Below the pieces are notes generated by a model. The model did not search any database and had not been told where the DNA came from. It was given only the letters and a program-made list of their open reading frames with translations. A DNA stretch of 39,584 bases, from IMG/VR virus record IMGVR_UViG_2585427708_000019. The stretch is one strand, 5' to 3'. This document shows positions 34,781-36,820 of this stretch, one piece after another. Position numbers and translations under genes: made by a program. Every line of letters begins with the position of its first letter. Position 1 is the first letter of the stretch. The stretch is from a virus (Duplodnaviria > Heunggongvirae > Uroviricota > Caudoviricetes).

Positions 34781-36820
34781 ATGACGTCCAAATGGGTTCA
34801 ACTATCATCAATGCCCGGAAACTTTACTGTTAAAGTTTCCGGTGGTACAGCGGCATTTCTTGAGGCTCCCTTTCCTCCGGCCGAAACAAAAGGAGGAATG
34901 ACATTTGCTGACTGTCTCATCAGTTTTAATACACGGGATTGCCTGTGGGTAAGGCCAGTATCCGGTGATCCGAGTGTGGAAATTACCGGAGCGGGTATTG
35001 GTGCGGTCATTCCGTTAAGTGCTGATGTTGCCGGTACTGCTGAACCGTCAGACTGGGATAATGCTGAAACACATACCCGTCCGTCAGGAAATGAAACTGC
35101 TTCCAGCTCCCCTTCCTGGTATTACGTGGTGGTTCTTGCTGGTCAGTCAAACGGTATGGCTTACGGTGAAGGTCTGCCACTGCCGGAGACATATGACCGC
35201 CCCGAACCGCGTATTATGCAGTTAGCCCGTCGCAGTACAGTCACGCCGGGAGGTAAAGCCTGTCAGTATAACGACATCATTCTGGCCGACCACTGTCTGC
35301 ATGATGTGCAGGATATGAGTGGAAAAAATCACCCGAAAGCGGATGTGGCTAAAGGGCAATATGGCACCGTGGGTCAGGGGCTTCACATTGCCAAAAAACT
35401 GCTGCCGTTTATTCCGGCAGATGCGGGGATTCTGCTGGTTCCCTGCTGCCGTGGTGGTTCTGCATTCACGGCGGGTGCTGACGGCACGTACAGTGACAGC
35501 ACGGGTGCTTCAGAGGACTCAGCCCGCTGGGGTGTGGATAAGCCGCTGTATAAGGACTTAATCAGCCGGACAAAAGCGGCACTGGCGAAGAACCCGAAAA
35601 ACCGCCTGCTTGCTGTGGTGTGGATGCAGGGCGAGTTTGATATTGATGCGAAGCCGACGGAGCATTCCGCGCTGTTTCTGGCGATGGTGGAAAAATTCCG
35701 CGCAGACCTGGCTGAACAGGCGGAACAGTGTACCGGTGGCAGTGCTGCTGGCGTTCCGTGGATTTGTGGCGATACCACGTATTTCTGGAAACAGAAAAAT
35801 GAACCGGCATACCAGGCAATCTATGGCGGCTACAAAAACAAAACAGATAAAAACATTCATTTCGTTCCATTAATGACAGATGAAAATGACGCGAATGTAC
35901 CCACCAACAATCCGGCAGAAGACCCGGATATTGAATCCATTGGTTATTACGGCTCAACGTGGCGTAACAGTGCCGCCACCTGGACATCTGCGGACCGGGC
36001 CAGCCATTTCAGTTCATGGGCACGTCGTGGGATTATTTCCGACCGTCTGGCCACGGCAGTTCTGACTCATGCGGGGCGAACCACAGTAAAAGCCGATGTT
36101 CCATCTTCTGAAACTGAAGCACCAGTGCCGTCACCTTCAGAAACTGAAGCAGTAACCACAACACTGCTGTCTTATCGTGTCAGTGAGTCAGAAGGAAATC
36201 TGAAAGCCCAGGGCTGGGAGCCGGCTGGCGGTAAAGCTGAAATTATCAGTGATGCAGGAGGCACAGGTGGTAAGGCAATGAAACTGACCAAGGAAACAGG
36301 TAAATCATCCTGGTATCTGGATCATGATGCCGGTACTGGTGCTGAACTGCTGAAAAATGGTGGTTTAATCAGTTGTCGTTTTAAAGTACCTGGCGACCTG
36401 GTGGCAAACCAGTATGTCATGGGGCTTTACTGGCCGGTTTCCTCTCTGCCGCAGGGTGTCACCCTGACAGGGGATGCAGGGAATAATCTGCTGGCATCGT
36501 TCTACATCCAGACAGACGCAAAAGACCTGAATGTGATGTACCACAATGCAAAAGTGGCAACAAATAACCAGAAACTGGGAACCTTTGGTGCATTTGATAA
36601 TGAATGGCATACGCTGGCCTTCCGTTTTGCAGGAAATAACAGCCTTCAGGTTATTCCGGTTATTGATGGTCAGGATGGTGCCGCGTTTACCCTGACGCAG
36701 TCACCAGTAGGAACTTTCCCGGTGGACAAACTCCGCGTAACGGATATCACAAAAAATGCAACTTACCCGGTGCTGATTGACAGCATTGTGGTGGAAGTGA
36801 AAAAAGCGGTAACAGAATAA
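34781..36820 (+). CDS. Cargo protein with sialate-O-acetylesterase-like (SASA/SGNH) domain and C-terminal lectin-like domain; NanS-p-like
   Basis: 679 aa; esterase-type motif VVVLAGQSNGMAYGEG (GQSN) about 120 aa from the N-terminus; duplicated SETEA linker; C-terminal beta-rich domain. Lies between gin and com-mom where Mu has no gene. Confidence 0.6.
   Translation: MTSKWVQLSSMPGNFTVKVSGGTAAFLEAPFPPAETKGGMTFADCLISFNTRDCLWVRPVSGDPSVEITGAGIGAVIPLSADVAGTAEPSDWDNAETHTRPSGNETASSSPSWYYVVVLAGQSNGMAYGEGLPLPETYDRPEPRIMQLARRSTVTPGGKACQYNDIILADHCLHDVQDMSGKNHPKADVAKGQYGTVGQGLHIAKKLLPFIPADAGILLVPCCRGGSAFTAGADGTYSDSTGASEDSARWGVDKPLYKDLISRTKAALAKNPKNRLLAVVWMQGEFDIDAKPTEHSALFLAMVEKFRADLAEQAEQCTGGSAAGVPWICGDTTYFWKQKNEPAYQAIYGGYKNKTDKNIHFVPLMTDENDANVPTNNPAEDPDIESIGYYGSTWRNSAATWTSADRASHFSSWARRGIISDRLATAVLTHAGRTTVKADVPSSETEAPVPSPSETEAVTTTLLSYRVSESEGNLKAQGWEPAGGKAEIISDAGGTGGKAMKLTKETGKSSWYLDHDAGTGAELLKNGGLISCRFKVPGDLVANQYVMGLYWPVSSLPQGVTLTGDAGNNLLASFYIQTDAKDLNVMYHNAKVATNNQKLGTFGAFDNEWHTLAFRFAGNNSLQVIPVIDGQDGAAFTLTQSPVGTFPVDKLRVTDITKNATYPVLIDSIVVEVKKAVTE

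Follow-up and report, generated by a model that had tools for sequence, protein, structure and literature searches.

The 679-aa protein encoded between the gin and com-mom genes of a Mu-like prophage is probably a functional sialate O-acetylesterase of the NanS-p family, and its gene, together with those of a DUF1378 and a DUF826 protein, is likely to form a long-standing cassette of the Sp18-type enterobacterial Mu-like phages. A preliminary description of this DNA had proposed a NanS-p-type cargo gene at this place, and that reading is supported with three refinements, i.e., the gene belongs to a cassette, the cassette is present throughout a phage lineage, and the protein's N-terminal domain is not DUF1737. 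The advance is a modest one: the phage NanS-p enzyme was already known, and what is new is the Mu-like carrier and a rare N-terminal domain in place of DUF1737.

The DNA analyzed (the window) is a stretch of 39,584 nt, IMG/VR record IMGVR_UViG_2585427708_000019 (Caudoviricetes). Alignment to LC727895, in which an 'inserted Mu-like phage' is annotated, gave the ends of the prophage (Table 1), and a short GGCG(T) duplication was observed at both flanks. Positions 34000-39000 of the window were 100% identical in many O157:H7 and O26 genomes, and the prophage is the counterpart of Sp18, the Mu-like prophage of E. coli O157:H7 Sakai. Sp18 is termed Mu-like in the literature, and it was reported to be intact, with its DNA being spontaneously packaged (PMC2669165). 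The window carries Pfam matches to gin, com and mom, Mu-type baseplate and tail genes, and a tail-fibre segment bounded by 185-nt inverted repeats. The insertion sites of Sp18-type prophages vary from genome to genome, and about 3-4% of the complete genomes of E. coli contain such a phage.

Table 1. Location of the prophage, of the genes at its right end and of the parts of the esterase (positions in the window)
Feature	Position	Strand	Evidence or remark
Mu-like (Sp18-type) transposable prophage, ~38.8 kb	294..39067	.	carries the esterase gene; ends from LC727895 alignment
gin-type DNA invertase gene, left neighbour	34121..34681	+	Pfam Resolvase 175 bits and HTH_7; phrog_125 DNA invertase
Probable NanS-p-type sialate O-acetylesterase gene, 679 aa	34781..36820	+	= Sakai ECs_4993
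N-terminal ~78-aa domain, predicted all-beta, residues 1-78	34781..35014	+	AF2 model; not DUF1737
Linker 1, residues 79-112, Pro/Ser/Thr-rich, predicted disordered	35015..35116	+	pLDDT <50; recombination breakpoint zone
NanS-like SGNH/SASA catalytic domain, residues 113-430	35117..36070	+	3PT5 match
Codon of Ser123	35147-35149	+	
Codon of His409	36005-36007	+	
Linker 2, residues 431-458	36071..36154	+	second recombination breakpoint zone
C-terminal jelly-roll/lectin-like domain (DUF6645), residues 459-679	36155..36817	+	6YP6; PF20350
DUF1378 small membrane protein gene, 60 aa, cassette gene 2	36967..37149	+	PF07125 131 bits
DUF826 protein gene, 81 aa, cassette gene 3	37185..37430	+	PF05696 57 bits
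154-aa ORF (Sakai ECs_4996), function unassigned	37469..37933	-	phrog_26524 match only
com-mom operon, right neighbour	38048..38939	+	Pfam Zn_ribbon_Com and Mom (259 bits)
com	38048-38248	+	Pfam Zn_ribbon_Com
mom	38202-38939	+	Pfam Mom, 259 bits

The order of the S/U invertible tail-fibre segment, gin, com and mom is shared with Mu and its close relatives; gin was ~71% identical to Mu gin at the nucleotide level, and Mom was 79.5% identical to Mu Mom. As had been pointed out beforehand, gin adjoins com in Mu, where 94 bp separate the two genes. The gin-com gap is ~60-95 bp in Mu, D108, SfMu, the Yersinia vB_YpM phages and the E. coli W prophage, whereas here 3,366 bp and four genes lie between the gin stop and the com ATG, which agrees with the insertion of about 3.3 kb first proposed, and the cassette fills most of this space. 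The esterase gene does lead the cargo, as the preliminary description had it, but it is not a lone gene, since it heads a three-gene cassette (esterase-DUF1378-DUF826). The DUF1378 protein has a hydrophobic N-terminal segment. The stretch from the cassette to com that holds the 154-aa ORF is variable, this ORF being missing or replaced in a second E. coli lineage, and no match to it was found in Pfam, NCBIfam or PADLOC; with the latter two, all four proteins of the cassette region gave zero matches. Terminator prediction returned none between gin and the esterase gene, whose transcription may take place in the lysogen, by read-through from gin, or late. A sigma-70 scan yielded 5 sites, against 7.1 expected from shuffling, and no convincing promoter, and alignment of the regions upstream of the esterase genes revealed a partly conserved block with no clear promoter in it.

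The ORF starts with ATG exactly where it had been placed, and its product is 100% identical to Sakai ECs_4993, which is annotated as "hypothetical protein". The motif with the GQSN residues, VVVLAGQSNGMAYGEG, is found at residues 115-130. The SGNH/SASA-type esterase assignment held: Pfam SASA (PF03629) matched residues 116-312 with 46.0 bits (cut-off 24.8), phrog_143 matched with 1027 bits, and the NanS/YjhS structure 3PT5 aligned over residues 104-428 with an E-value of 2e-118. Because the SASA match is partial (profile positions 4-158 of 226), the assignment of a full catalytic domain rests on the 3PT5 alignment and not on Pfam. The four NanS blocks, as defined for 3PT5 (PMC10792757), are intact, i.e., GQSNA at residues 121-125, RGGSAF at 224-229, MQGEFD at 282-287 and RxSHFS at 406-411, with those of the oxyanion hole among them, and the catalytic Ser123 and His409 are present in columns that are invariant across the alignment. 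The lectin-like nature of the C-terminus was likewise confirmed, since the 'NanS-p' structure 6YP6 aligned over residues 459-674 with an E-value of 1e-111 and DUF6645 (PF20350) matched residues 524-642 with 231 bits. Judged from these alignments, the homology to solved structures (E-values of 1e-111 to 1e-118) is far beyond chance. A single-sequence AF2 model of the full protein had a mean pLDDT of 34, too low to be used.

The protein resembles the lambdoid NanS-p enzymes (933W L0105/z1466, phi24B vb_24B_21/gp84 and phage 1717 gp44) in being prophage-encoded and in having the same NanS-like catalytic domain with its SGNH blocks, a DUF6645 lectin-like C-terminus, two flexible linkers and no signal peptide, and in both cases DUF1378 and then DUF826 genes follow downstream. 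The alignment to EHEC-type NanS-p that had been suggested gave 78% identity to NanS-p of the Stx2-phage 1717 from residue 102 to the end; the catalytic domain was 80-82% identical to lambdoid NanS-p alleles, and the C-terminal domain 79% identical to that of phage 1717 gp44. Experiments on the NanS-p family demonstrated de-O-acetylation of Neu5,9Ac2 and of mucin sialoglycans (reviewed in PMC8065619), and the identity of the catalytic domain suggests that the present protein would also act on Neu5,9Ac2 or O-acetylated mucin glycans. Chromosomal NanS of E. coli (YjhS, 3PT5) aligns with the whole of the catalytic domain, about two thirds of which is identical, and has in common with it the Ser-His pair and the GQSN, RGGSAF, MQGEFD and SHFS motifs, but it is a single-domain protein of ~330 aa (337 residues in the 3PT5 chain) of the nan regulon, without the N-domain and DUF6645. 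The differences from the lambdoid enzymes concern the N-terminus, where they have DUF1737 and the present protein an unrelated ~78-aa domain predicted to be all-beta; the carrier, which is a lambdoid phage in their case and a transposable Mu-like prophage of myovirus type here; and the position of the gene, which lies between stx/Q and the lysis genes (holin S) in the lambdoid phages and after tail-fibre/gin and before com-mom here, so that of the lambdoid late-region context only the DUF1378/DUF826 synteny is kept.

The preliminary description had proposed an N-terminal domain of roughly 110 aa. A distinct N-terminal part does exist, but its folded portion appears to span only ~78 aa and is followed by a ~34-aa linker predicted to be disordered (pLDDT below 50 at residues 80-115). 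Of the two profiles that had been proposed for the search, SASA scored above its cut-off, as described above, but DUF1737 (PF08410) gave no match even at E<=10, whereas the control, phage 1717 gp44, scored 57.8 bits; the domain that marks phi24B gp84-type capsid decoration is thus absent. DUF1737 was described as one helix and three strands (bioRxiv 10.64898/2026.04.10.717836), and the AF2 model of the N-domain is all-beta. The N-domain has almost no relatives. A word-indexed homologue search returned only near-identical fragments, and two scans of GTDB species representatives gave no confirmed relatives, so that the taxonomic range found comprises E. coli, Shigella and Salmonella. A 1445-aa protein with nine repeats (P0005) was discarded as spurious, because its match was confined to the Ala/Gly/Thr/Val-rich portion of the query. 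In BFVD, many uncharacterized phage proteins of ~90 aa have a similar fold (TM 0.5-0.64). In Salmonella lambda-like prophages, the N-domain is also encoded as a stand-alone gene of 81 aa beside a DUF6645 gene (343 aa). These two proteins belong to the same N-domain family (profile E-values of 1e-10 to 1e-13) and lectin-like family (30% identity) as the parts of the present protein, and the pair immediately follows the tail-fibre and assembly genes, as does the Sp18-type gene; it differs in consisting of two separate, overlapping genes on a lambda-like siphovirus backbone and in having no esterase domain. A location immediately 3' of the tail-fibre and tail-fibre-assembly genes was seen for the N-domain gene in three different backbones.

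The cassette was found in all of the 34 related loci examined, and its carriers include non-EHEC and non-pathogenic E. coli and one Salmonella Mu-like prophage, the N-domain of which is 29% identical to that of the present protein. It was absent from Mu, D108, SfMu, a Yersinia Mu-like phage and the Mu-type prophage of E. coli W. Hence, it is no tail component shared by Mu phages at large; that the gene be a conserved Mu-family tail component had been named in advance as a result that would overturn the cargo reading. The gene, for which the term unusual moron had been proposed, is no one-off, since the whole Sp18-type lineage has the cassette. Diverged relatives have kept the esterase gene intact and under purifying selection, with full length in 30 of the 32 complete ORFs (the other two are truncated to 523 and 499 aa) and dN/dS values of 0.09-0.22 in the esterase domain and the C-terminal domain and of 0.05-0.10 in the N-domain. 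The esterase/lectin 'body' was repeatedly exchanged by recombination at both linkers, the N-domain remaining associated with the Mu-like backbone. Behind one N-domain type, four or more diverged body alleles are kept. Across linker 1 the identity fell from 97% to 66% in one locus (L027), in another (L010) the drop falls inside this linker, and in a third (L020) the breakpoint is in linker 2, the least conserved segment of the protein (26-39% amino-acid identity between lineages). Linker 1 contains one 'SSP' (residue 109), the motif at which processing was proposed to take place in phi24B; since the second lineage does not conserve it, this motif was given no weight. A DUF1378 homologue (54% amino-acid identity) directly follows nanS-p in lambdoid Stx phages, and in phage Lys12581Vzw DUF826 occupies the same slot, after DUF1378 and before the holin gene, so that the nanS-p-DUF1378-DUF826 order is common to this phage and the Sp18-type phage. 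The trio is transferred and retained as one block in phages of unrelated types, an indication that its two small proteins have a link to the esterase.

In the reaction that we propose, Ser123, with His409 acting as the general base, would attack the acetyl ester carried by 9-O-acetylated sialic acids, the C-terminal domain may direct the enzyme to glycans, and the host population would thereby obtain Neu5Ac for its nan pathway. The N-terminus has no signal peptide and no hydrophobic segment, and since a signal peptide is lacking the substrate would presumably be reached only at lysis, i.e., upon spontaneous Mu-type lytic growth, or on phage particles. Service to the lysogen as a moron is no longer the sole plausible role, since DUF1737 of phi24B NanS-p was reported to be a capsid anchor, and a purely metabolic role is weakened because the lambdoid homologue was reported to be a processed virion protein (bioRxiv 10.64898/2026.04.10.717836). 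In addition, several nanS-p copies of the lambdoid kind already exist in EHEC hosts (3-7 matching places in each record), so that a further one may bring the lysogen little. The enzyme might instead be displayed on the virion, where the N-domain would attach the esterase/lectin body to the capsid or to the tail fibre/baseplate of the Mu-like particle and the phage would bind or modify O-acetylated sialoglycans in mucus, a possibility that we take seriously with the odds standing against it. It draws on the abundance of gp84 in phi24B virions and the binding of DUF1737 to hexon centres as a hexamer (bioRxiv 10.64898/2026.04.10.717836), on the fact that this domain and nothing else is replaced here, and on the behaviour of the replacement, which remains with the backbone while the body is swapped, is under purifying selection, is joined to the body by a flexible linker, exists, like DUF1737, also as a stand-alone small protein, has many phage proteins of similar fold and follows the tail-fibre genes. 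Against it, the Mu capsid is without decoration or cement proteins (PMC11915804), and a fit specific to the capsid is made less likely by the occurrence of one N-domain type in Mu-like (myovirus-type) as well as lambda-like (siphovirus-type) prophages; cargo genes, too, are classically inserted after the tail-fibre genes, so that the position by itself does not decide between the two. Display on the virion is compatible with the enzymology proposed above, and it is the biological role that differs.

SGNH-esterase tailspikes exist in other phages, e.g., G7C gp63.1, and the substrate could accordingly be a bacterial surface glycan, with removal of O-acetyl groups from the O-antigen or capsule aiding adsorption or altering the surface of the lysogen. 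The gene adjoins the tail-fibre module in all backbones, a weak PHROG match to a 'tail protein' family was detected (phrog_25867, E-value of 4e-5), and LPS de-O-acetylation was raised as a possibility for NanS-p in a review (PMC8065619), but the close identity of the catalytic domain to enzymes active on Neu5,9Ac2 and mucin glycans, its identity to chromosomal NanS, and the failure of a Pfam search to detect trimeric tailspike features or a tail-fibre N-terminal adaptor make this target improbable. That a lambdoid prophage donated the gene once, by illegitimate recombination, and that it has since been a passenger in decay and without function, is already disfavoured and hardly credible: the two truncated copies and the 'hypothetical protein' label that persists in the Sakai annotation are consistent with it, but they are outweighed by the full length of the remaining copies, dN/dS well under 1 in every domain, the invariant catalytic residues, the maintenance of diverged body alleles behind the same N-domain, and the divergence of the Salmonella Mu-like copy, which indicates long retention.

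NanS-p is treated as a feature of lambdoid prophages in the literature searched, which contained no mention of ECs4993 or of nanS-p in connection with Mu-like phages; some primary papers outside this search may list the Sakai Sp18 copy. Within that literature, ECs_4993 is a nanS-p copy so far uncounted, and it is carried by an actively transposing Mu-like phage. In commensal-type strains the Sp18-type copy may be the sole phage-borne nanS-p. A bolder proposal, to which we give slightly less credence than to virion display itself, is that the N-domain, as a counterpart of DUF1737 in function, is a previously unrecognized module for attachment to phage particles, and that the NanS-p-type esterases are built from modules and displayed on virions, with an anchor exchanged to suit each carrier phage. 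If so, DUF1737 would be the anchor for the phi24B-type capsid and the present N-domain that for Mu-like and Salmonella lambda-like phages, the stand-alone Salmonella protein could serve as a separate adaptor subunit for the DUF6645 lectin, and the Sp18-type phages of EHEC would be transposable phages that bind mucus or sialoglycans. The sole domain that differs occupies the position of the phi24B capsid anchor, so that these genes offer a natural experiment on service to the lysogen (nutrient access) versus service to the particle (mucus/glycan binding). The analysis also defines a rare, uncharacterized small domain, all-beta in its model, which in Salmonella prophages stands alone beside a gene for a DUF6645 lectin-like protein.

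The preliminary description placed a NanS-p-type sialate O-acetylesterase gene between gin and com-mom of a Mu-like prophage. This assignment held, with three refinements: the cargo is a cassette, it recurs across a lineage, and the N-terminal domain is not DUF1737. The ORF was present as described, and the proposed motif VVVLAGQSNGMAYGEG was found at residues 115-130. The protein matched Pfam SASA (PF03629; 46 bits, cut-off 24.8) over residues 116-312, DUF6645 (PF20350; 231 bits) over residues 524-642, and PHROGs phrog_143 (1027 bits). In a search of solved structures, residues 104-428 matched NanS/YjhS (3PT5, E 2e-118) and residues 459-674 matched 6YP6, a chain deposited as 'NanS-p' (E 1e-111), in agreement with the lectin-like C-terminal domain that had been proposed. 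The signature blocks of 3PT5, namely GQSNA with Ser19, RGGSAF, MQGEFD and R-x-SHFS with His301 (PMC10792757), were all found, as GQSN 121-124 (Ser123), RGGSAF 224-229, MQGEFD 282-287 and RASHFS 406-411 (His409). Aligned with five homologues (three Mu-like, two lambdoid), the protein showed no variation in the Ser and His columns, and the most divergent allele kept the His, as RATHFS. The SASA match and the intact catalytic residues, on which the assignment had been made to depend, were thus both obtained, and alignment to NanS-p of the Stx2 phage 1717 gave 78% identity from residue 102 to the end.

Features of the window and of related loci
Feature	Coordinates	Strand	Remarks
Inverted repeats (185 nt)	32670-32854, 33876-34060		bracket invertible tail-fibre segment; 77% complementary
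Expressed fibre gene	32094-33059		invertible-segment region
Tail-fibre assembly gene	33094-33726	minus	sole assembly gene inside invertible segment
gin-type invertase	34121-34681		upstream of esterase; Pfam Resolvase, HTH_7
Esterase ORF	34781..36820	+	679 aa, ATG start
Hairpin	36827-36853		directly 3' of esterase stop codon
DUF1378 protein	36967-37149		next after esterase; 60 aa, one hydrophobic segment
DUF826 protein	37185-37430		next after DUF1378
154-aa ORF (Sakai ECs_4996)	37469-37933	minus	variable slot between DUF826 and com; two CxxC pairs
Palindrome	37980-38004		~45 nt 5' of com start codon
com	38048-38248		downstream of esterase
mom	38202-38939		downstream of esterase; Pfam Mom 259 bits
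Flank duplication GGCG(T)	289-293, 39068-39072		short; prophage ends ~294 and 39067
DUF488-family gene region	39237-39584		right flank; adjoins prophage
Mosaic esterase genes	L010 3101-5182; L027 7992-10049; L020 8001-10043		related Mu-like loci
gin missing	L008 2358-3184; L018 8176-9001		L008 is from E. coli M3
N-domain + DUF6645 gene pair	L012 10001-11274		also L013, L014; Salmonella enterica contigs, after side-tail-fibre and assembly genes

The distance from the gin stop codon to the com ATG is 3,366 bp in the window versus 94 bp in Mu, as the reported insert of about 3.3 kb implied, and the mom product is 79.5% identical to Mu Mom. The esterase leads this insert, but the cargo is not a single gene: the genes for a DUF1378 and a DUF826 protein follow it. 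Lambdoid Stx phages are arranged as stxAB - nanS-p - DUF1378 - DUF826 - holin S (phage Lys12581Vzw; the nanS-p/DUF1378/DUF826 arrangement is likewise described in PMC10462455), so that the Mu-like phage bears all three genes in matching order and orientation. Likeness to lambdoid phages at the DNA level was limited to 35119-36801 (77% identity); the N-terminal coding part and the downstream genes matched no phage record beyond two copies of the same Mu-like element, and the DUF1378 proteins of window and lambdoid phages are 54% identical. The 154-aa ORF ahead of com had phrog_26524 as its sole match, with none in Pfam, NCBIfam or PADLOC, and in a second E. coli lineage of the Mu-like phage it is absent or replaced by an 86-aa ORF.

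Whether other Mu-like prophages carry a gene at this position had been left as a check, and the answer was divided. Mu, D108, SfMu, the Yersinia phages and the E. coli W prophage lack the cassette (gin adjoins com in the E. coli W prophage, which is of Mu type, and in a Mu-like phage of Yersinia), but it is present in relatives of the window's own lineage. Among non-EHEC E. coli, three diverged relatives (the isolates came from mouse, human faeces and pig) have an esterase of 684-693 aa, then DUF1378 and DUF826, ahead of com; gin lies directly upstream in two of the three and is lost in strain M3. The common order, tail-fibre assembly gene - (gin) - esterase - DUF1378 - DUF826 - (variable) - com - mom, was checked in 31 IMG/VR loci and these three relatives, and it holds wherever enough sequence is present. 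The esterase was full length in 30 of 32 complete ORFs. In addition, a Salmonella enterica contig carries Mu Gp45/46/47/48-type baseplate genes, a tail fibre, an invertible segment, a resolvase, two small ORFs and then an esterase whose N-terminus is of the window's type (29% identity). The conserved order, the full-length ORFs and the Salmonella relative argue that one branch of the enterobacterial Mu-like phages has long possessed and maintained the gene. L008 and L018, members of the second E. coli lineage, retain only about 50 bp of the gin 3' end ahead of the esterase, and their tail-fibre segment is presumably locked in one orientation. In the window, the single assembly gene lies on the minus strand, so the expressed fibre gene has no same-strand assembly gene in the orientation seen.

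The domains of the esterase have different histories. In L010 and L027-L030 the N-terminal all-beta domain (residues 1-78; N-domain) is 97-99% identical to that of the window, the esterase domain 67-69%, the C-terminal domain 38-47%, DUF1378 57-59% and DUF826 94-99%; in L020 and L022 the respective values are 100%, 98-99%, 77-86%, 100% and 96-99%. The breakpoints sit in the two linkers between the domains, one N-domain type was found in front of at least four diverged bodies (esterase plus C-terminal domain), and the type of N-domain correlates with that of gin. With lambdoid NanS-p the window's catalytic domain shares 80-82% identity, versus 64-70% with the bodies of other Mu-like relatives. 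The linker breakpoints and this closeness to lambdoid alleles show repeated exchange of the body with a wider pool, while the N-domain stays on the Mu-like backbone. The dN/dS values were 0.05-0.10 for the N-domain (close pairs, few substitutions), 0.09-0.14 for the esterase domain and 0.18-0.22 for the C-terminal domain, all indicative of purifying selection.

The N-terminus is not DUF1737, with which lambdoid NanS-p begins: residues 1-110 had no Pfam match even at E<=10, versus 57.8 bits for the phage 1717 control, and the N-terminal part matched only weakly a 79-aa PHROG with no assigned function. When 1.84 billion cluster representatives were searched exhaustively with HMMER, five matches to the N-domain were returned, and every credible one runs into the start of a NanS-type GQSN esterase. 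A profile search added further Salmonella variants and complete proteins, 81-82 aa long, that stand alone. In lambda-like prophages of Salmonella, which have genes for tape measure, M, L, K, I, J, side tail fibre and assembly protein, an 81-aa N-domain gene comes immediately after that for tail-fibre assembly and shares 4 bp with a 343-aa DUF6645 gene, whose product is 30% identical to the window's C-terminal domain and has no esterase domain. A DUF1353 gene follows this pair, and a Pertussis_S1-domain (ArtA-like) toxin gene lies about 5 kb further. Another such prophage has an N-domain-esterase fusion in the same position, and in one E. coli Mu-like prophage the esterase follows the assembly gene with no gin called between. 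The N-domain version thus lies just past the tail-fibre module in three backbones, whereas lambdoid DUF1737 NanS-p is located between stx and the lysis genes. Neither form was found in the GTDB species-representative genomes scanned.

Experiments have demonstrated that lambdoid NanS-p removes O-acetyl groups from Neu5,9Ac2 and mucin glycans and enables growth on Neu5,9Ac2 (review PMC8065619; PMC8319020). Because of the 80-82% catalytic-domain identity, the window's enzyme very likely catalyses the same reaction, with Ser123 as the putative nucleophile and His409 as the base, and the DUF6645 domain would target it to glycans. A role on bacterial surface glycans is improbable, because the esterase is close to sialate esterases, and decay of the gene is disfavoured as highly improbable. 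No hydrophobic N-terminal segment, and hence no apparent Sec signal peptide, was found in the protein, so that it would be released by lysis in Mu-type lytic growth or be carried on particles. Carriage touches on the main rival reading, in which the N-domain would be a virion anchor swapped in for DUF1737; this reading departs from the first in the role of the protein, not in its enzymology. The NanS-p of phi24B (gp84) is reported to be a processed capsid-decoration protein whose DUF1737 binds hexon centres (2026 preprint, bioRxiv 10.64898/2026.04.10.717836), and exactly this domain is exchanged here; moreover, the N-domain goes with the phage backbone, shows purifying selection, is tethered through a flexible linker, occurs as a stand-alone small protein, and its genes always adjoin tail-fibre genes. 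However, the Mu capsid has no accessory proteins (PMC11915804), the fold matches of the N-domain were uninformative, and the region after the tail fibre is also a common cargo site, so that an anchoring role is conceivable but rather unlikely.

Judging by its sequence, the protein probably works like NanS-p. It shares with that family three structural features (prophage-borne location, NanS-like catalytic domain, DUF6645 domain), and differs from the described members in its lack of a DUF1737 N-terminus and its position outside the lambdoid late region. The novelty lies in the type of carrier phage, in the locus and in the N-terminal module, not in the enzyme family. In the literature searched, which did not reach several primary NanS-p papers, no report treated nanS-p and Mu-like phages together and none mentioned ECs4993 or DUF6645; the esterase also goes unmentioned in the papers on Sp18-type phages. 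Some database records label fragments 'sialate O-acetylesterase', so the enzyme is recognisable at annotation level. The core function is as expected; the domain swap and the cross-backbone cassette are noteworthy for specialists in EHEC prophages and phage-glycan interactions, and are directly testable.

Between gin and the esterase, terminator prediction gave no candidate site, and promoter-like sites did not exceed the shuffled expectation; a block upstream of the esterase is partly conserved in diverged lineages. The hairpin CCCGCCGG...CTGGCGGG has seven A residues ahead of it, which read as a T-run on the minus strand; it resembles a terminator that acts on the minus strand or in both directions, not one that would end the esterase transcript. 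The perfect palindrome AATCGATCG-acaaaaa-CGATCGATT carries GATC sites; Mu likewise has a GATC cluster between gin and com, and the palindrome may represent a differently arranged form of the Dam-sensitive region that controls mom.

Many chromosomes of E. coli O157:H7 and O26 contain the 5 kb at 34000-39000 with 100% identity; at least 80% of this region is carried by 168 of 5,426 complete E. coli genomes, and the com-mom end by 226. The esterase is 100% identical to Sakai ECs_4993, annotated there as 'hypothetical protein' inside 'prophage Sp18, Mu-like phage'. The prophage ends were placed by alignment to an annotated inserted copy. Insertion sites vary (sorM is disrupted in Sakai and a lambdoid tail gene in strain 2013C-3252, and the window copy lies beside the DUF488-family gene), which together with the flank duplication is evidence of ongoing transposition. 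Other copies of the element reside inside lambdoid prophages.
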